A stretch of DNA of 20,904 nucleotides from Rhizaria sp. SCN 62-66 (Eukaryota). A model generated the notes under the pieces. It saw only the letters and a program-made list of their open reading frames with translations. It had not been told where the DNA came from and did no database searches. A program made the position numbers and the translations under genes. The stretch covers positions 62,001 through 82,904 of the forward strand of contig MEDY01000091.1 in the NCBI GenBank assembly GCA_001724265.1, written 5' to 3'. Shown here piece after piece: positions 1 to 20,545 of the stretch (position 1 is its first letter; every line of letters starts with the position of its first letter).

Positions 1-3000
1 AAGTTCTCGCTGGCAACGTCCGCGTCAGCGGCGGCGCTGGCGCTGGCGCTGGCGTTGGCGGGGGCGCCGACCGGAAGCGTGGCGCCGGCGGGGGACACGA
101 GCGTGCTGTAAGGGGGCAGCAGGTCGGTGTAGACCATCTCGCTCGCACTCACGCTCGCGGCAGCAGCGCCGGCGCCCACAGCGGCGGCACCGGACGCGGT
201 CGCGAGGGCGATGCGCTCAGCCTTCTTAGCCAGCGCGGCGGCGCGGGAGACCGCGTCGCCGCTCTCCGCAGCAGCGGCGGCGGCGCTCTGGCCGGCGCCG
301 AAGTGGCCGTGCGCGTCGCCGTCGTGCTCGCCGTCGTTCTCGTCGCCGTTGTTCGTGCTCGCCGTGTGCTTGTTGACGAACTCGACCGTCGACACGTAGT
401 CGTCGTGGTCAGCACTGCAGTCGTCGCCGCCGTCGCCGCCCGCGTTGGCGTTGTCGTTGGCGACGCTCTCCAGCTCGGCGGCCTGCGCTTCGAGCGACAG
501 CGCGCGGTCGACGTCGCCGTCCTCGCGCGCAAGCCCGGCCTGTGCACGCAGGGCCTCGACGCGCGCGCGTGCGCTGTCGCGGGCGGCGCGCGAGAAGGCC
601 GCGCGCGCCGAGGCGAAGGCCGGGAGCGTGACGGCCGCGTGGCGCGCCACCAGCGGCGTGTACGCGCTTAGCGGCTGCGACAGCGGCGCCGCGGGGTCGT
701 GCAGCAGCGAGGGCGCCGAGGACAGAGAGAGCGGCATGTACGCGTACAGCGAGCGCTTTGAGCCCGCGGAGCCGGCGCCGGCACCGTTGTTGTTGTTGAG
801 CTGGTTGCTGACTGCGGCGAGCACAACGGGGTGCGCCTGCGCCTGCGGCAGGGCGGCAAAGGCCGCCAAGAGCTCGCTTGTGCACAGCGTGCGCACCGCG
901 AGCCCGTCGCCCGCGCCGCCCAGCAGCGCTAGCGCGGCGTCGCCTACGGAGCCCGCGGAGACAGAAGCGTTGGCGTTGGCAGCGGAGAGGTTCTGGGCCT
1001 CGAGGCTGGCGGCCACGGTGTCCTCGGCGTCACTGTCAGAGTCGAGCTCAGCGAACAGACCGCCCACGGCAGCGCTGGAGCTGGAAGAGCTCGAGCTGGA
1101 GCTGCTGCCGCGAGCGCTGCTGCCGCTGGCGGAGGGCGTGTCGTCGGCGGCGGGGGGCTCCTCGTCGTCCGACTCGGGCAGCCCGTCAGCAAGCGCCTTG
1201 AGCCCGCGGCGCAGCGGCACGGCCTCGATGTCAGTCTTGGTCACGCTCGCAGCGCCGCTGCTGCTGGGCTTGCTGCGGGACATGACCACGGGCCGGCGGT
1301 GCGCGGGGCCCGCGGCGCCGCTGCTCGGGGCGGCTGGCGCGGCGGGCGCGGTCGGCGCCGCGGGGGGCTGCGGGCGCAGGCGCGGGCGGGCCGGCTCCAG
1401 GACCAGCCCCCAAGCCCGGCCCTTGACCTTGCTCTTGAGCGATAACGCGCGCGAGGCGCCGGCCTCCACGGTCGCCGCGGGGGCGTCGCATGGCGCGACC
1501 AGTGCCAGCGCGGCGGCGTTGCTAACAGCACTGGCAGCGGTGGCGGCAGCGGGGACGGGCGCAGCGGACGCGGTGGGCGTGTTGAGCGATGAGGCGCGGG
1601 ACGCGGTGGGGCGGGGCAGCGGCAGGTGGCTGTGGCGGGAGCCAGCACGCTGCAGGCCCTCGGGACTGAAAGGGTTACTGCCGCCGCCGGCGCCGCTGCT
1701 GGCGTAGTTGGAGTTGGCGCTGGCGCCGCCCGCGCGGGGCGTGTTGGCCAGCGACACGGGCTGGCGCGCGCTGGCCGTGGCGGCGTGGTGCACGAAAGGG
1801 AAGCCGCCGCCAGTGGCCACCGACGCGGGCGTCGCGGGCACGGGCGCGTGCGGACGGCCCGGGATCGACTCGATCGAGCTGCGGCGGCTCAACATGTCGT
1901 CCGTGACGACGACACCCAGCGCCGTGTTGGTGCTGTTGGCGCCGCCATTGACGCCGTGCATCGAGTGCGAGAACATCGACAGCGGCGAGTGCGGCGTGCC
2001 CGCGGCGTTGGCGACGCTCGTGGTATTGTTGCTGCTCGCGTTGCTCGTGTCGAGCGCGGAGGACGTCGTGCGCAGCGGCGCGAGCTCGCTGTCGTGTACG
2101 GAGAACACCAGCGCGTTCTCGCCGTCAGCGCCACCGTTGGCGCCCGCCGCGCCGGGGCCCGCGAGCACGGGGGCGGGCGCGCTGAGCACGTCCTCGAGCA
2201 GCGCCAGCGGCGTTGGGACCGCGGCCAGCAGCCCCGGCGCGCTCATCGCGTCCTCGGCGCGCTGGATCAGCTCGCTGTCGCTCACCACGGCGTCGCCAGC
2301 GCCGGCGCCGGCGCCGGAGCGCGCGGCAGCGCAGGCGGCGGCGTCGGAGCTGAAGGTCTCGGCGCCCGCGCAGGCCGCGGCGTCGGGACTGCCGCCGGCG
2401 CCGGGTGCGGTGGGGACGGCGTAGAGCGTGCGCACCGCCGTGTCGACCGAGGCCTTATCCGAGTCGTGGATCGACACCACCGTGTTGAGCGGCGCGAGCA
2501 CGTAGTGCGCCGCGCTGATGCCCACCGCGGCGCTGCCGCCGAGGCCGTGCGCGCCGGCGTCGTGGCCCAGGTGGCTCACGGGCGTGGGCAGGTTGCTCGC
2601 GGCGTCGTCAGACATGCTGCTGCTGCCGTGCAGGCCCCCGGCGGACGCGGCGGCGGCAGAATCGAACGCGTCCTCGTCGTCGCTGTACTCGCGGTTGCCG
2701 TCGTACACGGCGCTGAACCGCGCGTTCGCAGTGCTGATGCTGCTGTTGCCGTTGAAGCGGCGGTCGGCGACGCTGGTGAGCCCGAGCACGGCGCGCACGC
2801 TCTGCAGGCGCGCCGCGTGGGCCGCGCGCCGCTCCGCGCGCTCAGCGGCGCTCGCGGCGGCGTCCTTGGCGGCGCGCTCGTCGTGCATGCGTTTGAGCGT
2901 CTGCGCCTCGGTGAGGATCTCCTGGCGGCGCACGTCGATGTCGGCCTCGTCCAGCTCGTATGGCTCCTCGCGCGCGTCCTCCTCCATCCCGGCGAACTCG

Positions 3001-4238
3001 CCCAGGCCCAGCGGGGGCTCGGCGCCGGCGTCGTCCTCGCCGTCGCCGTGCTTCGGCGGAACCGTGCCCGCGGGGGGCAGAGCGCCCTCCGCGCGGAGCG
3101 AGAACAGCGAGGACCGCGCCTTGCGGGGCTCGTCCAGCTTGCGCGAGTCGTCCTCGGGGTCCAACCCCGCGACGCCGCCCGCGGGCGGCACGTACAGCCC
3201 GCGCGCGCGGAACTTGCGCTCGGCCTGCGCGATGAAGGGCAGCAGCGCGTCGTACTCGGCCTTGACGCGCGCGCGCTCACGGGCCTCTGCGGCGGCCTCG
3301 CGGGCCTCACGTTCGTCCTCGTCGAGGTCGGCGTCGTACTGATCGCGCTCCTGCTGCGCGGCGAGCTGCGCGTCCGCGCGCACGGTCGCGAAAACCGTCT
3401 CGGCGGCCGAGTCGGCGGCGCGGGCGAGCGCGCGCGTGTGTGAGTCGAGCGTGAGTGCCTCCGTCTGCAGCTTGGTGAGAGCACGCGCCACGGCCGCGGG
3501 CGGCACCAGGGACGCGGGGTCAGCGGTGCGCAGCAGGGGCGGGATCTGGACGGACACCCCGTTTGGGACCGTGGCGATCTTAACGGTGATGCGGCGGAAC
3601 AGGCGTTCCAGCAGCCCAGCGTAGGCCTCGGCCGTGGTGTCGGGGCACCACAGGTCCACCAGCTCGAAGATGGACTCGTAGAACTGATCGTACGACAGCG
3701 AGGGCTGGCCTTGGGCGTCGCGGGCAAAGTCCTCGTTGACGACGCGCAGGGCATCGCTGAAGACGAAGTCCGGGTTGAGCACCTTGCAGAGGCGGATGTA
3801 GAGGTTCAGATACGATTGCTTCTCCAGGCGGCCGTGCGCGTTCTTGCGCAGGAGCAGCCAGAAGCGGTTGATCTGGCGCGCAACAAGCTTGCTGTGGCGC
3901 AGCACGGCGCGCTTGCGCAGCGCCTCGGGTGTGTAGTGCTCGTAGTCGCCCTGCTCGCGGTACGCGGCCACGGGAACGCCCGCTGCGCCAGCACCAGCAG
4001 CGCCGTCGTTTGCAATGTGGCTGCTGCTGGACGCGCTCGAGGGCGCGGCAGGGCGAAGACTGCCGGTCTTACCGCCCTTAGAAGGAGCAGATGCCGAGCT
4101 CGGAAGATCAGCTGTGTTGTTTGTGATGTCAGGGTTGCATTGCTGTTGCCAAGGAAGAGACTGGTCTCGAGCCTCGGCCTCGGTCGGCTTGCGGAAAGCA
4201 CGGCCGAAAGCAGCGGGCGGTCCAGGATTGGGATCCAT
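1..4238 (-). CDS. Large uncharacterised protein (>1412 aa, 3' end beyond the left edge); N-terminal degenerate EF-hand-pair-like domain, then Ala/Ser/Asp-rich low-complexity and coiled-coil-like segments
   Basis: ATG at 4238 (MDPNPGPPAAFGRAF...). The frame has strong GC3 bias in the segments I translated, down to position 3. The track lists no minus ORF in this frame, as expected if it is open to the edge; plus-strand ORFs 303..671, 1626..3443 and 3711..4283 are its in-register antisense shadows. Globular-looking segment 3962-3585: YREQGDYEHYTPEALRKR...FWLLLRKNAHGRLEKQSY...DFARDAQGQPSLSYDQFYESIFELVDLWCPDTTAEAYAGLLERLFRRIT. Confidence 0.85.
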   Translation of the reverse strand, partial: MDPNPGPPAAFGRAFRKPTEAEARDQSLPWQQQCNPDITNNTADLPSSASAPSKGGKTGSLRPAAPSSASSSSHIANDGAAGAGAAGVPVAAYREQGDYEHYTPEALRKRAVLRHSKLVARQINRFWLLLRKNAHGRLEKQSYLNLYIRLCKVLNPDFVFSDALRVVNEDFARDAQGQPSLSYDQFYESIFELVDLWCPDTTAEAYAGLLERLFRRITVKIATVPNGVSVQIPPLLRTADPASLVPPAAVARALTKLQTEALTLDSHTRALARAADSAAETVFATVRADAQLAAQQERDQYDADLDEDEREAREAAAEARERARVKAEYDALLPFIAQAERKFRARGLYVPPAGGVAGLDPEDDSRKLDEPRKARSSLFSLRAEGALPPAGTVPPKHGDGEDDAGAEPPLGLGEFAGMEEDAREEPYELDEADIDVRRQEILTEAQTLKRMHDERAAKDAAASAAERAERRAAHAARLQSVRAVLGLTSVADRRFNGNSSISTANARFSAVYDGNREYSDDEDAFDSAAAASAGGLHGSSSMSDDAASNLPTPVSHLGHDAGAHGLGGSAAVGISAAHYVLAPLNTVVSIHDSDKASVDTAVRTLYAVPTAPGAGGSPDAAACAGAETFSSDAAACAAARSGAGAGAGDAVVSDSELIQRAEDAMSAPGLLAAVPTPLALLEDVLSAPAPVLAGPGAAGANGGADGENALVFSVHDSELAPLRTTSSALDTSNASSNNTTSVANAAGTPHSPLSMFSHSMHGVNGGANSTNTALGVVVTDDMLSRRSSIESIPGRPHAPVPATPASVATGGGFPFVHHAATASARQPVSLANTPRAGGASANSNYASSGAGGGSNPFSPEGLQRAGSRHSHLPLPRPTASRASSLNTPTASAAPVPAAATAASAVSNAAALALVAPCDAPAATVEAGASRALSLKSKVKGRAWGLVLEPARPRLRPQPPAAPTAPAAPAAPSSGAAGPAHRRPVVMSRSKPSSSGAASVTKTDIEAVPLRRGLKALADGLPESDDEEPPAADDTPSASGSSARGSSSSSSSSSSSAAVGGLFAELDSDSDAEDTVAASLEAQNLSAANANASVSAGSVGDAALALLGGAGDGLAVRTLCTSELLAAFAALPQAQAHPVVLAAVSNQLNNNNGAGAGSAGSKRSLYAYMPLSLSSAPSLLHDPAAPLSQPLSAYTPLVARHAAVTLPAFASARAAFSRAARDSARARVEALRAQAGLAREDGDVDRALSLEAQAAELESVANDNANAGGDGGDDCSADHDDYVSTVEFVNKHTASTNNGDENDGEHDGDAHGHFGAGQSAAAAAAESGDAVSRAAALAKKAERIALATASGAAAVGAGAAAASVSASEMVYTDLLPPYSTLVSPAGATLPVGAPANASASASAAADADVASEN

Positions 4239-4904
4239 AGAATACCTGCCTGTGGGTTTCATGCGAGAGAGAGAAACAAATGAGCATAGAACTAAAGGAC
4301 GAAGTGCAGCGAGGCAGATTTGCAGAAACTGACTCTGGCAACGGTTCGAGTCGAGGGTGGTCTAAAAATAGTGTAGTTCGATATGTTCCCTAACGTTGTT
4401 TAGATATTAAACAGAATGACAAAATAGTACACGTCGTGATTCTTTTTTACATAAAAGCAATATTTAAACAAACTTGTCTACAGGTCGTGGGGGCGTCTTT
4501 TCGGTCGCCGCGCTCGTTACCCACTTTGAACAGACTGGGTCAGCGGCCAAAAAGTCAGGCCGCAGTTGGCCAGTCCATTTGACCGAGGGGACTTGTGGTG
4601 CCTTCAAAATCATCTTTCAAACTCACGCGATTGTTCGTCAACTGGATATATTTTTGTTGTTTTGTTTTTGCTTGGTATTAATACTGATTGCTCTCAAATT
4701 ATATCCTTTAAATCTGACGGTGACATGTCCAACTGGCACCTGTCTAGGTTCTCGTAGCCCAACGGATCGCAAGCCATTCAAGTTGTCGCTCGCTCACGCC
4801 CTGCCAAACCTAACTGTACCCCTAACTCCCATCACGACACTATGTGGTACTTTTCTGTGTAGCTTTACTGCTTCTGTTTTCTGGGTGACTCTCCTCGAGT
4901 TTTT
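4239..4904. promoter_or_regulatory. Divergent intergenic region (666 bp), probable bidirectional promoter plus 5' UTRs
   Basis: Lies between head-to-head ATGs at 4238(-) and 4905(+); AT-rich flanks around a GC-rich core at ~4480-4605. Confidence 0.55.
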
Positions 4905-6826
4905 ATGCCGCCAATGCAGCGCCCGCCCTCGTCGAGCACGAAGGGCGCGAGCTCGAGCTCCAGCACCACGACCAGCAGCAGCCTCAGCGCCGGCTCTCGT
5001 CCTGTCTCCCGCCCCGCAGCGGGCTCGTCGGTGGGCAGCAGGCCGCTGGCGTCGGCCGGCGTTGCCATCATGGGCACCAGCGTCGGCGCGCGCCCTCTCT
5101 CGTCCAGCGCGAGCGCGAGCTCCACGACGGCGAGCGGCACTGGCAGCAGCAGTCGGGTCGGCATGGGCAGCGCTGCGAAGCCAAGCGCTGCGTCGACCTC
5201 AGCGACAGCGAGTGTGACGGTGCGCAAGCCGCTTGTTGGCGCTGCGAGCGCCGCCAGCACCGGCGCGCGCGCTCCTGCCCCGGGCGCTCGCCTTGCCGCC
5301 AGCACCGGCGCGAGCGCGAGCGCGCAGCCGAGCTCCCGCCCCGGCACGGGCGGCAGCGGCCCCGCCAACGGCGTGAGGACGAAGTCTGTTGCTGCTAAGA
5401 CAACTTCTGCGGGCGCCGATCCCGAGGGCGATGACAACGACGATGCTGCTGGGGATGAGGCTGAAGACGACGTCCCGCAGAAGCTTCGCTCTAGCTACGA
5501 GGCCTTTGTCCGTCGGCTTGAAGGAGACATTGCGAATCAAAGCAATGACGACGATGATGACGATGACAATGACGAAGATGGCGGCATTGCAACTGAAGAC
5601 GACGATGACGGCGACAACAATAACAACAACGACGACGACGGCTTATACGCCGACGACCTCTTTCACGACGACGACAGCAGCAAACACAGCAACGGCGGCG
5701 ACAGCGACCCGCACACGGACGCCGCGCTGCTTGCCCTTACGCGCCCACTGCAGGGCCCCTTCACACCGCTCGCGCCCCTCCTTTACTTCTTCCCCTTCGC
5801 GTGCCCCCCGCCGGCCGCCCCCGCCGCGCGCGCGGCTGAGCTCGCAGAGCTGAAAGCGCGGCGCGAGAGCGCGCTGCGCAGCGGCTACGAACTGGCTGCC
5901 GAGCTTGCGGGCACGGACGCGGGCTGCGTGACCATCGCCAAGGCGCTGAGGGACATCTGCGTTAACGCACCGGGCCATGTCCTCAGGACGGACAAGAGTA
6001 CGTGTCTCCACTGTGTAATTGCTGATCAAATGCTCTTCTGTCCAGTCTTCCTTTTATAGATTCTTCAACATCATTCGCTTGACACCAATGCACCTCTGTT
6101 TCTCACCTCACGTGCTTCTGTATTGTTATCTCCGTCTTGCTCCGACTCCAGTGGTGCCGTGTGAGCGCTGCATTCCCGCGGGTAGGACTGGTGCGGCGCA
6201 AAAGAAGCGCCGCGCCGCCCACTACGCGTGCGCCATGTGCGCCTACGAAGATGTACGTCATGTGCTCACTTAGCATAATATAAAATTATCATGTATTCTG
6301 TATCGAGCTCATGAACACTTGCCTTGCAATCTTGTTCAACATTTACATTCAATTGCCTTTTTCACTTTGTTTTCTGTGGATACTTATCACCGCGTAGGGC
6401 GTGTGTCCCGCGTGCCGCGGCATCATCCGCCTGTGCACCTTTGCGCCGCCCACGGTAGGCTTCGCGGCCGTGTGCGCGGCGCTGTCGACGCCGCAGGGCG
6501 CGGCGTGCGCGATACGGCTGGCGCGCGACGACGCCAAGCGCGTGTACCCGCTCAAGGCCGCAGCCAGCGCCCACGCGAACAAGAACAAAAGCAAGCAGGA
6601 AGCAAACGGTGATGATGACGAGGACGAGGACGACGACGATGATGAGGAGGACGAGGATGAGGATGAGGTCGAGGACGAGAGCGCCGCGGGGGCGGAGTTC
6701 ACGGCGCTGTGCAACGAGCTGCGGCGGCACCTCACCGTGCTGGTGCGCACGTATCTCATCTCCATCAAGTCAATTGGCAGCACTGAAACATTTGGGTCAA
6801 CGAAAGTGAATACGGTTCCCCACTGA
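4905..6826 (+). CDS. Uncharacterised ~540-aa protein: Ser/Ala-rich N-terminus, Asp/Asn-rich tract, Cys/His zinc-ribbon, acidic tract near the C-terminus
   Basis: Exons 4905-5997, 6152-6252, 6398-6826. Introns 5998-6151 (GTACGT...CAG) and 6253-6397 (GTACGT...TAG) join in frame to give ...TDKMVPCERC...AAHYACAMCAYEDGVCPACRGIIRLC. The 3' end is uncertain because GC3 bias falls after ~6750, so a further intron is possible. Confidence 0.7.
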
Positions 6827-7222: not shown

Positions 7223-8883
7223 TTAGCCCTCCTGGCCGAACTGCTGCGTCCACTCCTCCTGGCGCGCGAGGTCGCCCTGCGCTACGGAGGGCTTGGTGTT
7301 CTGCACGGCCATGACGAAGTGGCGCAGCGCCAGCGGCGGCGGCAGCAGCTGCTCGCCGGGGATGTCGTAGAGCGTCATCTCGATGCCCTGCGGGTCGCCG
7401 GGCGAGCAGGGCGAGTACATAAACTCGTGCTTACCGTCGGGGTCCGCCACCTTCTTGAAGTGCGTGGCGTCCTGGCACATGCGCACGGGCGCGTAGAGGG
7501 CCTCGCGCACGCAGACTGAGATATCGCTGCCCGAGAAGCCCTCGGACTCGCGGCCCAGGCGCATGAAGTCAGCGTCGGAGAGCGTGTTGGGCGTCTTGCC
7601 GACGTGGATGCGGAACATGGCCGCGCGCGCCGCGGGGTCGGGGAGGGCGATGTACACGCGCTTCTCGAAGCGGCGGCGGATGGCCGGGTCCAGCTCCCAC
7701 GGCACGTTGGTGGCGCCCAGGACAAGGATACCGTCGTTGCCCTTGCCGACGCCCTGCATCTGGACCAGGAACTCGGTCTTGATGCGGCGCGCGGACTCGT
7801 TCTCGCCCTCGCCGCGGGACGTGCACAGCGAGTCGACCTCGTCGATAAAGATAATCGAGGGCGCGTTCTTGCGCGCCAGCTCAAAGAGGTTGCGCACGAG
7901 GCGCTCCGACTCACCCTGGTACTTGGAGACGAGGTCCGAGGAGGAGACGGCGAGGAAGCAGGAGGACCCAGCCTCAGTGGCGACGGCCTTGGCGATGTAA
8001 CTCTTACCAGTACCTGAGTTGATTGGCGAGGAGAGGTTGGCAATAAAAGAAAGAGAATAAAGATAATATGATAGTTATGTGAGAATATACAATATGATCC
8101 CATATAGAAACAAAGCATGTCTTACTCAACACAACATTGAGGAGTTATTTAGTCACAGTGAGCGACGACGTACCGGGGGGTCCGTAGAGGAGAATACCGC
8201 GCCAGGGCTTGATGGCACCGACGAAGAGCTGCGGGAACTTGACAGGCAGGATCACGGCCTCCTTGAGGAGCTTCTTGGCGCCCTCGAGCCCGGCGACGTC
8301 CTCCCACTTAACGTTGGGCGTCTCCTTGACAATCGCGCCCTCGAGCGCGCCCATCAGCTTCGCATTCTCGGGGTCCTCCTCCTTGTCCGACTTGTCGCCG
8401 TCGCCGCCACCCGCCTTGGTGCCCTTCTTGCTCGAGGCCTCGGCGCCGCCCTCGGCCGTCACCACGGCCTTGGACTGCTTCGAGTTGAGCAGCTTGTCGA
8501 TGGCCTCGGCGCGGTCCATGTACTCGAGGATCTTCTCGCGGATCACTTGCTTGTTGCGCTCCGTCTTGGTGTAACGCACGCCCGTGACGAGGTAGTTGAG
8601 ACCCTGCTTGTAAAGCGAGAGCGCCTTGGCCAGGTCGTCGTCGTTGTCGGCCTGCACAGCCTGCTTGATGATCTCAAGGCCCTACCGCGCGCGCGCGGCA
8701 ACGAGCGAGGATAAAACACGGTGATAAAAAGTGCAAGTGAGCACGTGACCAGGATAAATATGTGTGCATCAATGCGTACACGCTATTCGTTAAGATTATA
8801 AACCACATTAGAAAGAATGAAATGACAAATCGATGGAGAAATGTGGGAGCACGACGAACCTTGGGGATGAACGAGTTGTCCAT
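7223..8883 (-). CDS. VPS4: Vacuolar protein sorting AAA+ ATPase VPS4 (MIT + AAA + Vps4_C), 440 aa
   Basis: Exons 8883-8860, 8681-8174, 8013-7223. Introns 8859-8682 (GTTCGT...TAG) and 8173-8014 (GTACGT...CAG). MIT helices ([12 protein letters not shown]), [15 protein letters not shown], Walker A GPPGTGKS (split by intron 2), Walker [29 protein letters not shown]-terminal FGQEG; stop TAA. Confidence 0.97.
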
Positions 8884-9409
8884 GTTGTTGGGGACGAGAG
8901 CTCACAGCGCAAAGCTACGAGTTTGCTGGTTTCGCCGGTAGACAGCTCAACGCTGCTGTTGTGTAAAAGAGGCGAGAGAAGACTTACTCGCTGTCGGAGT
9001 TGTCTCGCGTGTGAAAGAAGAAGGCGACGTCGCCCTGCTGAACGAGGAGAGAGCGAGAAACGCTTCGTGGTCAGAACCGATGAAGCAAGTAGAAAGAGAA
9101 TAAGATAAGATTTTGAAAGAAAACCCTAAATATATAATGGAGATTACGCAGATGCAGTATCGGGCAAAGTGATTTTATGTCTGCACACGGAGCCGTTAGC
9201 GCATACCACTGTGGGATACGAAAGACCTCCTCGACCTAAGCCCGCTTGCCAGTTTGCAGACGACGGGCATCGCGTGGCATTTCCTCGCACAACGCCTGCA
9301 ATTCCAACGCCTTTCTTTTGCAACTACCGCTACGTCTTATCCTGCCTGTCTCTCAATTCTGCCTGCTTGTTTTTTGATCTATATTCCCTTTTTTTCCCTT
9401 CTGCGTAGT
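8884..9409. promoter_or_regulatory. Divergent VPS4/MMAB intergenic region (526 bp); includes a candidate VPS4 5'-UTR intron 8987-8915 (GTAAGT...TAG)
   Basis: Head-to-head ATGs at 8883(-) and 9410(+); AAACCCTAAA at 9121-9130 followed by TATATAA. Confidence 0.5.
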
Positions 9410-10735
9410 ATGCTTCGCCGCCTGGGTTCTCAGCTTCTCACCAAAAAGACCCCCCTCGCTCTCGCCGCATCCGTCTCTGCCTCTGTCTCCGTTCTTCCTT
9501 CTGCTTCTCTTCGCGCCCTCCCGCTTTCCCGCCCCGTCTTCTAGCCCCGCCGCGCCATGTCCACCGAAAGCCCCGCGTCTAGCGAGAGCGGCGACTCCCC
9601 GCGCCGCATCAAGGTCTACACTAAGACCGGCGATAAGGGCACCTCGACGCTCTACAACATGCAGCGCGTCAGCAAGGACGCTGACTACTTCCAGGCTCTC
9701 GGCGAAGTCGATGAGCTCAACGCCTTTATTGGCGTTGCGCGTCGTACGTGACAACAGTCGCAACATCAACCACTTTTTTCATGCTACAAACTCTCTCATC
9801 CCAACCTGTAACTTGTATGCTCACCAGTCGCTCTCTCTGTTTTGGCCTCAAACCGGTCTCCGTCTTTCTTGCCGCCCCCAGACCACTGCCAGACGGAGGA
9901 CAACGGGCTGGACAAGTGGCTGGAGATCCTCCAGTCGCGCCTGCTCGACGCGGGCTCCTGCATCGCGACCCCGCTGACCTCGTCGCCCGAGTCGCGCATC
10001 CACCGCACGAAGTTCCCCGAGGACGCCACCGGCAACGTCGAGCAGTGGATCGACGAGGTACGCGCTCTTGAAGCCACGCTATGCCCGACTTATCAACGTG
10101 CTGTCTATCTTATCCTCAGATTTCAATTTCCTAGCGTGTTATATAACCTGACAAATATTTTCTTATTGCTTCGTTATCGCCTCTGTCTGCAGATGGATGC
10201 CAAGCTGCCCCCTCTGACACGCTTCATCCTGCCCTCCGGCGGCCTTGCTTCCTGCTCCCTGCACGTTTGTCGCACCGTGTGCCGCCGCGCTGAGCGCCGC
10301 ACGATCCCCCTCGTCGCGCGCGGCGACCTCGAGCCCTACGTCGGCATGTTCCTCAACAGGTATGCCAAAACGCATATATCACCGTGTATACCTCACTTTA
10401 ATGGCACAAGATTGGAATAATATGTTTAATGTGTGAGACTATATTATGTCTCTAAGTTTCAAGTTTAATTGTGCTTATCTTTGTTTTCAATTCTCGTGAT
10501 TTTTCTTTCTAACGAGTTCTGCAGGCTGAGCGACTTCTTCTTCGTCGCGGCCCGTTTCGCGGCCCAGAAGGCGGGCAAGCCTGAGGTGGAGTACGTCAAG
10601 CACGTCGAGCGCTTCCACTCCCACCTCCGCACTCCCACCGTCGCCGCCGCCGACGCCGCTGCTGGCGCGACGGCTGCCACTGATGCGCCTGCTGCTGACG
10701 AGGCGACTGTGACGACCACCGGTGAGAAGCAGTAA
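9410..10735 (+). CDS. MMAB: ATP:cob(I)alamin adenosyltransferase, PduO/MMAB type; putative mitochondrial presequence interrupted by an in-frame TAG (9542-9544); second ATG at 9557 gives 246 aa
   Basis: Exons 9410 (or 9557)-9743, 9882-10057, 10193-10359, 10525-10735. Introns GTACGT...CAG (9744-9881), GTACGC...CAG (10058-10192), GTATGC...CAG (10360-10524). Family motifs KVYTKTGDKG, GEVDELNAFIG, LQSRLLDAG, FILPSG, RTVCRRAER, NRLSD; stop TAA. True start uncertain. Confidence 0.93.
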
Positions 10736-11112: not shown

Positions 11113-12657
11113 TCACCGGATCTCCTTGAGGATGACCTCGGCGCCGAGCTTCCTGAGCCGGTCGCCCAGCTCGCGGCCTGCGGCCCAGGCGCGGCCCTGG
11201 CGCTCCGCGCGCGAAAGCCCGTGGGGCAACGCGACGGCGCCGTTGCACTCGCTCACCATTGCGCCGTCGAGCGAGAGCACCGCCGCGCGGGTCAGCACCA
11301 CGTCCACAGTCCCCGCCGCGTCCGCGCCCTGCGCAGAGCCACCGGCCGCCGGGGCGGGGAGGGTGATGGCGGCGGTTACGGCGCGGTTGTTGCGCAGGGC
11401 CTCCTTCGCCTTGCAGTCGCCCTCGGCGGTCGCCGTCGCCGTCGCCGTCCCAGTCTCAGCGGCCTTCGCGGCATCGGCAGCGGCAGCGGCGGCGGCAGCG
11501 GCGGCAGCCTCCATGGTGGCGGCGACCTCGGCCTCGGTCTGCGCGATGAGCGCCTGCGCCTGCTGCTCGGCGACGGTGGCGACCTCGGAGTAGACGGCGA
11601 TGGGGACCTTGCAGCCGCCCTGGAGCGCGGCCAGCATCCCGCGCTCGAGCGTGCACGAGCTCTCGCTGTTGCTGTCCTGCAGCGCGGCGAAGACCAGCTC
11701 GCCCGCCGCCGCTGTCGCCGCGTCCAGCGCCGCGATCCCGCGACGCGCGTTGGCCGGCCCGGGCGCCGCCGACTCGGCGTTGCTCAGCGCGGGCGCGGTC
11801 GCGCAGGGGACGTCGGCGGATCGCACGACGACGGCGAGCGCGCCCTGTCCCACGGCGTGCAGGTAGAAGGACGCCGAGAGCTCCTCGGCCACGCGCGCCG
11901 GCAGGTCGAGGCGCTCCAGGCCCACGCGGGCGAGGATGATGGCGTCGAACTCGCCAGAGTCGAGCTTATTCAAGCTAATGCGCATGTACGCAACAGAAAG
12001 AAACATGGGGGAACAGCAAGAAAAAGAAAATAGGTGAGCGAATAAAGGAAGTCGCTTTTATAACTTTTCAGAGCTAAACATGGCTTTGTCGGAGATATAG
12101 TGTTGTCTTGTCGCGTACCGCGTGAGGACGTTGCCGCGGATGTGGGCCGCGACAAGGTGCGGGTGGTGGCGCGCGAGCGTCGCGCGGCGGCGCAGCGCCG
12201 AAGTGCCGATGACGGCGCCCGGGGGCAACATGTTGAGCGCGAGCGACGCGCCCGGGTTAGCCACGGCGTAGGCCTTGGCCTCGGCGCTGTCCTTATAGGC
12301 GGCGAAGGCGGCAAGGTGCTTGGGGTGTAGGATGACGGCGTCCGCGGGCGGCTCGCGCTCCAGGATGGCGGCGAAGGAGACGCCCTCGGGCAGCGTCGTG
12401 GGCAGGTCCTTGACGCAGTGCACGACAATGTCGACCTTGTCGGTCAGCAGCGCAACGTCCAGCTCCTTGGTGAAGACGCCCTTGTTGTCGAACGACGAGA
12501 GCGGAATGAGGAGGTTCTTGTCGCCCATCGTCGTCATTCCGATGATCGGAAAGGAGATCTCGGGGTACGTCTCGGACAGAACGCGCGCAACGTACTTGGC
12601 CTGCCACATCGCCAGGGCACTCTCGCGGGTGCCGATGCGGATGGTGCGCTTCGACAT
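11113..12657 (-). CDS. hemC: Porphobilinogen deaminase / hydroxymethylbilane synthase, 466 aa, with Ala-rich insertions
   Basis: Exons 12657-12119 and 11974-11113; intron 12118-11975 (GTACGC...TAG). Motifs IRIGTRESALAMWQA, TMGDK, KGVFTKELD, VHCVKDLPT, GTSALRR, IRGNVLTRLNKLD, HAVGQGALAV, and the cofactor Cys in LQGGCKVPIA; stop TGA. Confidence 0.96.
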
Positions 12658-14807: not shown

Positions 14808-15417
14808 TCGATACCTACAATTACCGCAAAATGTACAATAAAAGCAAGGATAGAGGGTGCGAAAGAAACAAAAGTGGGTCAGAAAGGGGTAAAGAAGAAG
14901 CCGAGGGAGGTGGCAGACGAAGAGGAAAAAAGTGGGCGAATGCGGCTCAGAAAAACAAGGGGAAAATGGCAGCAGAACGGCATTAAAATTATCAATGCAG
15001 ATAGAACACGCAATGGAATATCTAACCATGATTACGACAACATCATGGGCCTTTGCCTCAGTGCACAATTGAAGGTGCTAAGACGAATGCGTGGCGAAGC
15101 AGTTCGGAGAGCGTTTGCATAGCTCGTCTGAATTTTTCGGCCCCATGGCCTGAGGGCCGAAATCGTGATTACGGCAAACCCTCTATGCACATCCCATCAT
15201 CGTTGCAATACGCTTTGCGTTCACTTACTTGTTCTTTTTAGTTCTGATTGATTTAAATTTATAATTGAAATCGCGTGTGTCCCACGTTAATGTGCTCTAC
15301 TAGAGGTCGCTTTCCTCGACTCTTCCCGACTCCTCAGCTAACCAACCTGTTTCCTCCCTTTTTTGCTCTGCACTTCCCCGCCATTCACTCTTTGCCCTTT
15401 TTCCGCCAAGCTCTTTG
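14808..15417. promoter_or_regulatory. Divergent NOP58/PPAN intergenic region (610 bp) with a central inverted repeat
   Basis: Head-to-head ATGs at 14807(-) and 15418(+); TTTCGGCCC (15135-15143) and GGGCCGAAA (15154-15162); pyrimidine-rich leaders on each coding strand. Confidence 0.55.
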
Positions 15418-17089: not shown

Positions 17090-17544
17090 GCTAACCCTGC
17101 TTGAAGAATGCTTTCGTATTGCTGTCGATGGGTTGTTCGTGTCGTCATAAGTCTTATATATAGCCATTTACGTATTTGATATAATTTCATACAAAGTTCA
17201 AGTCACTATACCTCCTCGTTTACAAACCACTCCAAGCCTAGCCTAGTGCGATTGCTACACCGCTGTAGCCGTTTGGACTGGCGCTAATTTTGAATAGCTC
17301 TATGTGCGACGAACTTATCGTGCTTTCTTCTGTCTGTCGAATATACTATTTAAAGTGACTGTGACACTATTTTGTGTTCATTAGATCTTGTGGAAATGCG
17401 TTATTGTTGTGAAATCTTCTTGCTCATCCCTCATCCTTCCCACTCGTCCCCCCCTGAAACAGTCAACTCTAACTCCAACCCTGGTAACAAATCCCATCGA
17501 CACAAAAAGAAAATTCAGTAAGTTTCTGACCTTAACCGCTGACT

Positions 17545-19230
17545 ATGTCGTCCTCTGGTGCTGGTATCGGTGAGACGGCCTACGTCTTGCGCGCGCACGA
17601 AGAGCTGCGCGTCGAGGCTTCGCCCACAGTTCCCATCACCGTCTCGCTTAAGTCCGGCACATGCGAAGTTTTCGGCACGGAGCTCGCTAAGGACATGCCG
17701 TACATCTTTTCTGATGCAAAGCTCGCGTTTTACACTTTTCATAGCTGCGAGCTCATCGTCTCTGGCGTTCCCCTGCTCGCGTATGTGTCGTCCGACTGCA
17801 CGACGCACGTCCATGCCAACATCCACGCCGAGCTGGACAAAATGCGTCGCAACGCAGGCCGCATCGAGCCCACGGTTACCGTTCCCGTGCCTCCGCGCCC
17901 GCACACGCTTCTCGCTGCCGCCACCGACTCCTCAAGCTCTTCTAGCGACAATGCGACCTCTGAGAACGCTTCGAACGACGACAGTGAGCCCCGCCTTGTC
18001 ACCATTCCTTCCCCCGAGTCAGCCGGTCCCCGCGCCCTCATCGTCGGCGCCCCCGGCTCCGGCGCTTCTTCTCTGTTCCGCACGCTCGTGACATACGCCA
18101 CCCGCAGCAACTGGCAGCCCACGGCCGTGGACCTCGACCCCTCAGATAACCTGTTTTCGGTCCCCGGTTCGCTTTCCGCGCTGAGCGCCGAGATGCCGCT
18201 GGGCCTCGGCCACGGCGCCACGCTGGCCGCGCCCGCCGCCTCGGCCGCGGCGTTGTCTTCACCGCTGGTCCACTTCTTTGGCCACCAGACGGTGAGAGCG
18301 AACGAGCCGCTCTGGCGCAAGCAGGTGACGCGCCTCGCTAAGTCGGTCGACGCGCGCGCCGGCGAGCCCTACTTGCACGCGCTCACCGAGACGCAGGCGC
18401 ACTACGCCACTGCGGGCGCGGATGCCGCCGCCACGGCCGAGGCCAGCGCGGTCGCGTCGGGCGCCTCGGCCGCCGAGGCCGCCGCAGCCGCCGCGGCGGC
18501 GACACTGGCCAACGCGCCCTTGCTGGCGGCCGCCGTGGCGGCCGTAGTGCCCGGAACCGTGCCGCAGACGACGCCGCCGGAGCTCACCGCGGCGCAGCGG
18601 CGCACGCGCGCGTCAGGCGTGCTGGTGCACTTCCCCAGCACGCAGGCGGGCGGGACCGTGGAGCTGCTGGCGCACGCCGTGGCCGCCTTCCGAATCGACG
18701 TCGTCGTTGTCGTGGACAACGAGCGCCTCGAGGCGCAGCTGCGGCAGAACGCGCTGTTCGAGGCCGTAAGCGTCGCCACGGTGCCCAAGTCCTCAGGCGT
18801 GGTTAGCGTGGGCTCGCTCGACAGTGCAGACCGCGCCGCGCGCGCGGCCCGGCGGATCAAGGAGTACTTCTACGGCGCCAAGGGTGACTTCGCGCCGCAG
18901 CAAATGAGCATCAAGGCGGGGCTGATGCAGATCTTCAGCACGACGCCACCGCGCGTGCTCGACGACACGCTGATGCCCGAGGGGCTCGCCGGGCCTGGCA
19001 ACGCGTCGGAGCAGCTCGTGGTGCCCGCGGACATTACCGGCGCGCACACACAGGCCATCTTCGCCATCTCGGCCGCCACCACCACCGCCGAGGTCGCCGA
19101 ATCCCACGTCTTCGGCTTTCTCTGCGTCAAGAACGTCGAAGATGGGATTGTCTCGTGCCTGGCGCCTACCGACGAGGCGCGGCCCGGCAATATGCGCTTT
19201 GTGGTTGGCTCCATCGCCTGGATGGACTAA
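17545..19230 (+). CDS. CLP1: CLP1-family polyribonucleotide 5'-hydroxyl kinase / cleavage factor II subunit, 561 aa, apparently intronless, degenerate active site
   Basis: N-terminal domain motifs ELRVE, LKSGTCEVFGTEL, AFYTFHSC, YVS, HANIHAELDKMR; GPRALIVG P-loop region; VDLDP, SVPGSLSA, PLVHFFG, VPKSSGVV, IKEYFYG, FGFLCV; ends GSIAWMD; stop TAA. Confidence 0.9.
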   Translation: MSSSGAGIGETAYVLRAHEELRVEASPTVPITVSLKSGTCEVFGTELAKDMPYIFSDAKLAFYTFHSCELIVSGVPLLAYVSSDCTTHVHANIHAELDKMRRNAGRIEPTVTVPVPPRPHTLLAAATDSSSSSSDNATSENASNDDSEPRLVTIPSPESAGPRALIVGAPGSGASSLFRTLVTYATRSNWQPTAVDLDPSDNLFSVPGSLSALSAEMPLGLGHGATLAAPAASAAALSSPLVHFFGHQTVRANEPLWRKQVTRLAKSVDARAGEPYLHALTETQAHYATAGADAAATAEASAVASGASAAEAAAAAAAATLANAPLLAAAVAAVVPGTVPQTTPPELTAAQRRTRASGVLVHFPSTQAGGTVELLAHAVAAFRIDVVVVVDNERLEAQLRQNALFEAVSVATVPKSSGVVSVGSLDSADRAARAARRIKEYFYGAKGDFAPQQMSIKAGLMQIFSTTPPRVLDDTLMPEGLAGPGNASEQLVVPADITGAHTQAIFAISAATTTAEVAESHVFGFLCVKNVEDGIVSCLAPTDEARPGNMRFVVGSIAWMD

Positions 19231-19693: not shown

Positions 19694-20545
19694 TTAAAGC
19701 CATGAGTTGACAGTGAGTGAGGTGGGCTGGCGCGAGACATCCTGGGGGCGCTTAGGCGCAGTGTAAACGTAGTGGTCGCGGTGGCGGTGGCCTGTCACAG
19801 AGAATAACCAGGAGAAAAAACATTAGCAAGTAAACAAGGATGAATATAAACATGTCAGAAAAACAAATATGTAAGGTCATTATATTTTATCATGAACAAT
19901 ATAACTCGAAGACGAATGTTAAATGCATCATATCAATCTGAAATCGTGCGTACCATAGCCGAGTCCAGCGGGAGCGTAAATGATTCTGCCTTTCTCGTCG
20001 TACTGCGTCGGCTTGTCCTTGTTTCCTGTGGACCTACGAGCGGCGCCAAACTCGGTGCCGGGCACGGAAATGTGCAGCCGCACGCTAGCGTTGACAGATG
20101 CACCGATGTTTCCAGCGCTCATGACGTCCTCGCCGCTCGCCAGGCGCGCAGCAGCCGGGTTGCCGGTCGTGTCGAACGAGTTCGAGCCCGCGCCAGGACG
20201 CGCCGCGGCGGGCGCGGTCGCGGCGGGCGCGGTCGCGGCAAAAGATACAGCGGGCGCAGTTACCTTGGCGCGCTGCTGGAGAAGCTGCGCAGCGGTGGGC
20301 ATGCGGTCGGCGTCTGAGCTGGCGAGGTAGCGCGAGTGGTCGCGGTGGTGGATACCGTAGCCCAGCGACGCGGCGTCGATGTTCGGAACGTACTTCGCGC
20401 GGCGCTCGGCTGACGACTCAAGAGGAGGAAGAGTTCCCTCAAGGGCCTTCATGATGTCCTTAACAGTCATGTTCATAGTCACAGTGACGCCCGAAGAGGT
20501 CTGGCTGGGCTGCGTCTGGCTAAGAGAAGCGGACTGGGCTGACAT
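19694..20545 (-). CDS. Uncharacterised 229-aa protein with two LGYGxxHRDH motifs
   Basis: Exons 20545-19954 and 19791-19694; intron 19953-19792 (GTACGC...CAG). Splicing produces LGYGHRHRDHY, matching the earlier LGYGIHHRDH, which supports the junction; stop TAA. The ATG directly follows an acceptor-like CAG, so an upstream exon cannot be excluded. Confidence 0.7.

Follow-up and report, generated by a model that had tools for sequence, protein, structure and literature searches.

An in-frame TAG between a presequence-like leader and the probable start codon of a rhizarian cobalamin adenosyltransferase gene

We analyzed a stretch of 20,904 nucleotides ("the window") from an uncultured rhizarian, Rhizaria sp. 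SCN 62-66 (contig MEDY01000091.1, positions 62,001 to 82,904 of the forward strand); all coordinates below are positions within this window. It contains, on the plus strand, the 5' end of a nuclear gene for a PduO-type ATP:cob(I)alamin adenosyltransferase (MMAB). In this gene, a TAG at 9542-9544 separates a leader of 44 codons, which resembles the mitochondrial presequences of related proteins, from an internal ATG at 9557-9559 and the enzyme that follows it. The reading that we prefer, with a probability of roughly one-half, is that the TAG is an ordinary stop codon, that translation of the enzyme begins at ATG 9557 and yields a form without a presequence, and that the old presequence has become either an upstream open reading frame (uORF) or a portion of a 5' intron. 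We consider these two versions to be about equally likely.

RESULTS AND DISCUSSION

The 5' end of MMAB contains an in-frame TAG

The frame starts at ATG 9410-9412 and runs through the 44 codons of the leader (9410-9541, MLRRLG...RPVF). It is then interrupted by the TAG, which is followed by a C at 9545, by four codons that encode PRRA (9545-9556), and by ATG 9557, which begins MSTES. ATG 9410, the TAG, and ATG 9557 are all in frame with the catalytic domain. This is how an earlier note on this DNA had read it, with the same coordinates, a single frame, and a TAG followed by CCC, and the sequence bears it out. The note had also counted eight Arg or Lys and no Asp or Glu, which holds for the 48 residues around the TAG (6 Arg, 2 Lys, and no acidic residues). 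Similarly, the cleavage-like motif that it reported, RRA-MS, does lie 3' of the TAG, with Arg at -2/-3.

The gene has four exons and encodes 246 codons plus a TAA stop codon; once the introns are removed, the frame that starts at ATG 9557 is uninterrupted. When we searched Pfam exon by exon, exon 1 and exon 3 each matched PF01923 (Cob_adeno_trans) well above the curated cutoff of 24 bits (57.3 bits, E = 2.6e-15, and 55.3 bits, E = 1.1e-14, respectively), which agrees with the earlier identification of the gene as MMAB. Exon 4 on its own had no match in the Pfam search. Exons 2 and 4 align, by eye, with the orthologous protein P0002, which is full length at 292 amino acids, and the spliced product is close to it. 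Exon 1 (9557-9743, MSTES...GVAR), whose ATG is the likeliest protein start, has a coding score of 0.65, and 19% of its codons end in A or T. It is followed by intron 1 (9744-9881, 138 nucleotides, GTACGT..CAG), exon 2 (9882-10057), intron 2 (10058-10192, 135 nucleotides, GTACGC..CAG), exon 3 (10193-10359), intron 3 (10360-10524, 165 nucleotides, GTATGC..CAG), and exon 4 (10525-10735, with the TAA at 10733-10735).

The TAG is present in the organism's DNA. This stretch of DNA occurs in metagenomic runs from wastewater and bioreactors. One contig of run X2, which belongs to a study other than that of the possible source run (X1), spans 9508-10675 with no differences, TAG included, and the 64-residue open reading frame (ORF) that starts at ATG 9557 (P0027) was recorded on seven contigs. 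Thus, an assembly error, which had been suggested as a possible explanation, is refuted. A contig of another run (X4) ends at 9534, just short of the TAG; the breaks of X2 and X4 near 9508-9534 do not match a simple bubble from a single-nucleotide polymorphism at 9542. A search among proteins of 61-195 amino acids did not turn up any copy of this leader, from the same species, in which the frame is open. In the sampled populations, the TAG thus looks fixed.

The gene is alive: its exons are intact, and a contig from a library that is labeled as cDNA (X8) lacks intron 2. This contig joins 10055 to 10191, which gives GT..AG if the cut is shifted by +2, and it ends at 10359, at the end of exon 3. 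Since intron 2 was removed in some molecule, MMAB is probably expressed. (X8 also gave a 34-nucleotide piece with loose ends, which looks foreign.)

The leader is homologous to the N-terminal extensions of related proteins

Sequence comparison shows that the leader is homologous to the mitochondrial presequences of related proteins, and that ATG 9410 corresponds to the presequence start. The nearest relative is a 130-residue JGI protein, P0028. It aligns with 100% of the 111-residue product that would result from reading through the TAG (E = 7e-21 in the search and 7e-34 in the pairwise comparison). P0028 begins with the identical residues MLRRLG and continues without a stop for 46 residues, up to ...HPQRC-MSD...; it has the same SDSPRR linker and reaches the same intron position (...ARRT, at the start of our intron 1). 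Within the PRRA stretch that precedes the internal Met, P and R are shared with P0028. If the leader alone is compared to P0028, then E is 0.011 (for a single comparison), with 11 of 23 residues identical.

Besides P0028, eight other eukaryotic relatives have N-terminal extensions, and the extensions are basic in the more distant ones (P0002, P0029, P0004, P0006, P0012, P0001, and the metagenomic locus L001). The extensions of P0028, P0029, P0002, P0004, P0006, P0012, and L001 start with Met and have no acidic residues. The internal Met is conserved as well: in our alignment (A1), Met 9557 is matched by Met-Ser in P0028, P0001, P0002, and L001 and by Met-Ala in P0004, and two other proteins (P0005 and P0010) start at the homologous Met, as judged by eye. 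In this alignment, the TAG lies opposite a His of P0028, with a Gln adjoining it. All nine of the aligned relatives (counting L001) have an open frame, or at least no stop, at the TAG site. Because the extensions of the relatives are homologous and open, the presequence is ancestral, with a stop in this species only. These homologous extensions support the earlier claim of a mitochondrial presequence upstream of ATG 9557. The note had allowed that orthologs in relatives might lack a presequence; instead, the aligned eukaryotic relatives bear N-terminal extensions.

The gene resembles other eukaryotic MMAB with cleavable presequences: it has the same PF01923 domain, a basic extension, and a Ser-rich acidic linker before the KVYTKTGDKG core. 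It differs in having an in-frame TAG, five codons upstream of the internal Met, that separates the extension from the enzyme.

The composition of the leader says less than its homology does. The 44 residues include 6 Arg or Lys, no Asp or Glu, 10 Ser or Thr, and 20 Leu, Ala, or Val. This is presequence-like, but C/T-rich DNA alone yields much of such a composition. The highest hydrophobic moment over any 11 residues is 0.60, at residues 1-11, which is not significant, as 814 of 5,000 shuffles reached it. Similarly, the open frame means little by itself, because C/T-rich DNA cannot encode Asp, Glu, or stop codons, and two of the three frames are open. In such a tract, only those codons that contain purines can turn into stops, so an open frame is expected even if it is not translated.

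A metagenome scan with exon 1 returned mostly bacterial PduO, and among the matches that we examined, only L001 and one other locus (L002) looked eukaryotic. The contig that encodes P0028 was not retrieved; its peptides do not fit the six patterns on which the scan was based. L002 encodes a more distant eukaryotic MMAB (1-240, 69% identity) in which MKVYTKTGDKG directly follows an acceptor-like sequence (...ttgactcag); its presequence, if it has one, may be on an upstream exon. We also scanned contigs of prokaryotic genomes with the Vps4 protein that is encoded beside MMAB, in case relatives had been binned incorrectly, and found nothing above 61% identity.

The leader does not look like coding DNA

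Exons in this window are very G+C-rich: in our training exons, about 90% of codons end in G or C. In the leader, 17 of the 43 codons after the ATG end in A or T, while just 4.25 are expected from the synonymous codon usage of our seven gene models. This count was not reached in any of 500,000 simulations, and the maximum among 3,700 exon windows of 44 codons was 16. The coding score of the leader is -0.09, whereas exon windows have a median score of 0.67, with their 1st percentile at -0.02; even so, this frame is the best of the three. The coding signature begins at ATG 9557.

Only one other coding stretch, at the 5' end of the Clp1 gene, comes near to the leader in how atypical its codons are. 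Among the first 43 codons of Clp1 (17545-17676, plus strand), 13 end in A or T, versus 4.4 expected (P ~ 2e-4). The start or the 5' structure of this gene model may need checking.

The introns of this organism are stereotyped and richer in A+T than the exons are. The 10 introns that we modeled are 135-196 nucleotides long; nine of them begin with GTAYG and one with GTTCG, and three have a TAG acceptor. The segment from 9408 to 9544 bears the full set of these signals: a GTATGC donor, which also begins MMAB intron 3, a pyrimidine tract, a TAG acceptor, and a length of 137 nucleotides. On sequence signals alone, it is a candidate for a 5' intron. The stretch between 9449 and 9542 lacks any AG dinucleotide. 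The candidate also contains CTCAC at 9437, which is similar, by eye, to motifs that lie 42-70 nucleotides before several acceptors.

We considered other ways in which splicing might affect the 5' end. An upstream exon with a different presequence can be rejected, as there is no ATG on the plus strand in 9180-9409 and no GTAYG or GTTCG donor in 8884-9407. Potential in-frame donors within the leader (at 9473, 9485, 9491, and 9536) were rejected as well: none of them matches the donor consensus.

Together, these observations suggest the following scenario. A stop would have arisen within the presequence, and a CAG-to-TAG transition would be the simplest path. The enzyme would then be translated from the conserved ATG 9557, in a form without a presequence. 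The old presequence, by now decaying, might persist as a uORF of 44 codons that ends 12 nucleotides before the main AUG, with ribosomes either scanning past it or reinitiating. Alternatively, 9408-9544 might be a 5' untranslated region (5'-UTR) intron of 137 nucleotides, and its removal would delete the upstream AUG and make ATG 9557 the first AUG of the mRNA. The earlier note had named a CAG-to-TAG mutation as one possibility. We now rank a change of this type first; it fits the noncoding-like codon usage of the leader and its intron-like signals.

The gene models of the window contain no in-frame TAG

If TAG were a sense codon in this organism, then it might also appear within other genes. 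Our seven gene models have 4,008 codons and include MMAB, Vps4, porphobilinogen deaminase, a Nop56/58-like protein, a Brix protein, Clp1, and 1,319 codons of an ORF of 1,453 amino acids. None of the 4,008 codons is an in-frame TAG, and all of the exon junctions in these models are explained by canonical introns. By contrast, TAG occurs nine times out of frame across the gene models. We also scanned all stop triplets, on both strands, for clearly coding sequence on both sides, and found none: the best candidate had scores of just 0.27 and 0.27 for its two flanks and is antisense to the 1,453-residue ORF, and the best candidates in general are antisense to real genes. One apparent in-frame stop, in porphobilinogen deaminase, is a TAA and was set aside: it lies within an ordinary GTACGC..TAG intron. 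The window does not contain any tRNA genes, nor did we find any Rfam families in it.

Six gene ends in the window are backed by homology: four are TAA and two are TGA, despite the preference for G or C at ~90% of third positions, and none are TAG. Two other ORFs, whose ends lack homology support, end with TGA (6824-6826 on the plus strand and 19928-19930 on the minus strand). However, six is a small sample: if TAG ended a fifth of genes, then we would expect to see no TAG among six ends about a quarter of the time.

We also looked for features that might promote readthrough. A C at the +4 position is a weak context for termination, and this is the only aspect of the site (UAG CCC CGC) that fits a readthrough context; it does not match CAR-YYA. 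The predicted fold of 9542-9661 is not significantly stable (z = -1.47; 13 of the 200 shuffled sequences did as well), and a wider region has z = +0.51.

The organism may be related to a rhizarian with a UAG = Leu code

Among named sequences, the one that best matches Vps4 from the window is a Vps4B fragment that is labeled as being from the insect Lygus hesperus (P0238, UniRef100_A0A0A9WUK5; 74% identity). P0238 is just 59% identical to mammalian Vps4B. In a maximum likelihood tree of Vps4, which is a single gene, the window's protein and P0238 belong to a clade of 13 rows with support of 100/98, and Paulinella falls outside. Thus, P0238 is probably a mislabeled sequence from the rhizarian known as exLh, and was probably truncated at an upstream in-frame stop.

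Panek et al. (2017, PMC5304391) found exLh in transcriptomes of L. hesperus and placed it in the Sainouroidea, which are free-living or coprophilic protists. In exLh, UAG encodes Leu, and UAA and UGA are the sole terminators; 384 in-frame UAGs were reported in 71 genes. The authors add that Guttulinopsis and a gene from Rosculus appear to use the standard code, and they pose the extent of the UAG = Leu code within Sainouroidea as a question (PMC5304391).

We suggest that the organism is plausibly an uncultured, sainouroid-like cercozoan from wastewater and bioreactors. This placement fits the habitat, since Sainouroidea, as described there, are associated with feces. The organism resembles exLh in that it probably belongs to the same wider clade (in a single-gene tree), in its habitat, and in that TAA and TGA are the only terminators seen (6 of 6). 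It differs in its use of TAG: in-frame UAGs are frequent in exLh, at least in the genes reported, but the window has a single candidate, with none in 4,008 other codons. At the rate for exLh (384 in 71 genes), dozens of in-frame TAGs would be expected here if the organism used that code.

Alternative explanations

Several observations argue against an ordinary stop with a start at ATG 9557. The leader begins with the same MLRRLG as in P0028, even though the mature part of exon 1 is just ~70% identical, which suggests that the stop is recent or that the leader is still in use. The frame of the leader has no lesion apart from the TAG, although a C/T-rich tract tends to remain open anyway. No ATG occurs on the plus strand in the 230 nucleotides before ATG 9410, which has an A at -3; if this ATG is in the mRNA, then it should capture ribosomes 12 nucleotides short of the main AUG. 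The absence of TAG from the six homology-backed gene ends is another point on this side, as is the Vps4 clade shared with the probable exLh sequence, which, if the placement is correct, raises the prior for something odd about TAG. As methylmalonyl-CoA mutase is mitochondrial, one would have to explain why its adenosyltransferase has no presequence. The evidence from the leader's codons is strong but not absolute, because the 5' end of Clp1 is also atypical. Also, coverage that looks like RNA is confined to 10005-10359, from the X8 contig, with none over the 5' end, and a run of polyadenylated RNA (X13) yielded nothing. Four more points weigh against the 5' intron in particular: its G+C content (0.61) and its pyrimidine content (0.75) exceed those of the eight introns that we tabulated (0.33-0.50 and 0.57-0.65, respectively); it has an A instead of a G at position -1 of the exon; and given that the presequence begins with Met-Leu, a GT before the ATG is the only coincidence that is needed for the donor, with odds of about 1 in 16.

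The main competing idea is that this organism terminates poorly at UAG or has given it up as a terminator, UAG being either a nascent sense codon on the way to the exLh code or a site of readthrough for the import of MMAB, with AUG 9557 giving a cytosolic form. We consider this unlikely. In the first version, TAG would be a rare or nascent sense codon (for Leu, as in exLh, or for Gln, as in Iotanema), and ATG 9410 would give the full precursor with a working presequence. This would account for the intact frame, the conserved MLRRLG, and the gene ends (4 TAA, 2 TGA), and it would fit with the best named match of Vps4 and its place in the tree. However, the placement is from one gene, other sainouroids apparently have the standard code (PMC5304391), and the nearest Vps4 sequences to the exLh-like one (P0150, P0152, and P0153) are ORFs of 379-435 amino acids with no interrupting stop. 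With no in-frame TAG in 4,008 codons, nine TAGs out of frame, no tRNA gene in the window, gene ends that chance could explain, and a leader whose codon usage is unlike that of coding DNA, the earlier suggestion that UAG is a sense codon is not supported, and we view it as improbable. In the second version, leaky readthrough of UAG-C, whether specific to this gene or general, would give a minor mitochondrial precursor while AUG 9557 gives the cytosolic form, so that the stop acts as a dual-targeting switch. The +4 C (a weak context for termination), the cleavage-like RRA-MS beyond the stop, and the otherwise intact frame are in its favor; the two in-frame Mets around the presequence, which several relatives share, would suit two isoforms; and small amounts of this enzyme are sufficient. 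But none of the nine aligned relatives has the stop, CAR-YYA is absent, neither the downstream fold nor the wider region stands out, and the leader has noncoding-like codon usage. In a search of the literature that covered titles and the beginnings of abstracts, we found no case of readthrough within a mitochondrial presequence. We know of no precedent for readthrough inside any N-terminal presequence. Programmed readthrough is therefore not supported either, and we give the switch that the earlier note had proposed only a small chance.

The remaining explanations are far less probable. A different splice might remove the TAG and retain a shorter working presequence, by using a donor at 9473, 9485, or 9491 with the acceptor at 9544. 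Joining any of these GTs to 9545 would keep the frame, and 3 of 10 introns have TAG acceptors, but the donors (GTCTC, GTCTC, and GTTCT) fit neither GTAYG nor GTTCG, and the introns would be just 54-72 nucleotides, far below the range of 135-196 nucleotides that we observed, so this is very unlikely. It is similarly hard to believe that MMAB is dying and has acquired, with the TAG, its first lesion as a pseudogene: there is an early stop in an ancestral frame and the codon usage of the leader has decayed, but the exons after it remain intact and score strongly as coding, with matches to PF01923 and a product close to P0002, and there is the spliced contig from the cDNA library and the same sequence on seven contigs. 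As for an error of assembly or sequencing at 9542, the identical X2 contig and the recurrence of the ORF from 9557 on seven contigs make its chance negligible.

Other genes in the window

MMAB (9410-10735, plus strand, counted from the upstream ATG) and Vps4 (7223-8883, minus strand) diverge from a common region of about 530 nucleotides. Vps4 has three exons and matches the Pfam domains MIT, AAA, and Vps4_C; one of its exon junctions is confirmed by P0267. P0147, a Vps4 with 90% identity to the one in the window, and P0028, the MMAB from the nearest relative, both come from a JGI contig whose length is 5,789 nucleotides, so the divergent pair is probably conserved in that relative. Directly upstream of ATG 9410 is a C/T-rich tract (9300-9407, plus strand), which is likely to be a promoter or a 5' leader. 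Tracts of this kind, ~60-130 nucleotides in length, lie immediately before the starts of MMAB (9300-9405), Brix (15310-15417), Clp1 (17415-17470), and Nop (14830-14960, minus strand), and they may be a common promoter or 5'-leader element of this organism.

At the left edge of the window, a single open frame of 1,453 codons (3-4361, minus strand) runs off the end. It is 73-77% G+C, and its coding score backs the minus strand, but it has no match in Pfam with E of 0.01 or better. A low-complexity gene that is rich in Ser, Ala, and Asp (4900-6826, plus strand) has Cys-x2-Cys pairs in its short middle exons and two introns that begin with GTACGT (5998-6151 and 6253-6397, the latter with a TAG acceptor); its first exon had no Pfam match. 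Porphobilinogen deaminase (11113-12657, minus strand) has a long Ala/Thr-rich insertion after the match to its C-terminal domain, and one intron with a TAG acceptor.

Comparison to known systems and implications

The arrangement at the 5' end of MMAB is reminiscent of genes whose products are localized to two compartments by alternative initiation, with two in-frame AUGs that bracket a presequence. Here too there is an upstream AUG, a presequence-like leader, and a second AUG near the mature N terminus that is conserved (in this gene, P0028, P0002, L001, and P0004). The difference is the intervening stop, which means that ordinary translation could not produce the long form. Another comparison is to the peroxisomal targeting signals (type 1) that are exposed by readthrough in fungi and animals. 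In both cases, a stop separates the body of the protein from a targeting signal, but those extensions are C-terminal and conserved, and mostly involve UGA in special contexts, whereas the stop in MMAB is N-terminal, is not conserved in relatives, and has no known stimulatory context or structure. The closest parallels may be the uORFs, the 5'-UTR introns, and the intronization of formerly coding sequence in intron-rich protists. Like these, MMAB has an AUG-initiated ORF of 44 codons that ends 12 nucleotides before the main AUG, along with intron-like signals that are 137 nucleotides apart; unlike known 5'-UTR introns, the candidate is a prediction from sequence, with more G+C and more pyrimidines than the eight tabulated introns.

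The contig apparently comes from a poorly sampled group of rhizarians, the only one in which a nuclear code with UAG = Leu is known, and the organism is present in public runs from wastewater. If the TAG is an ordinary stop, then this would be a clean natural case of a mitochondrial enzyme that lost its import signal by a single stop codon, with expression rescued by a conserved second start and perhaps by a new 5' intron. One would then also ask at what location in the cell this protist activates its cobalamin.

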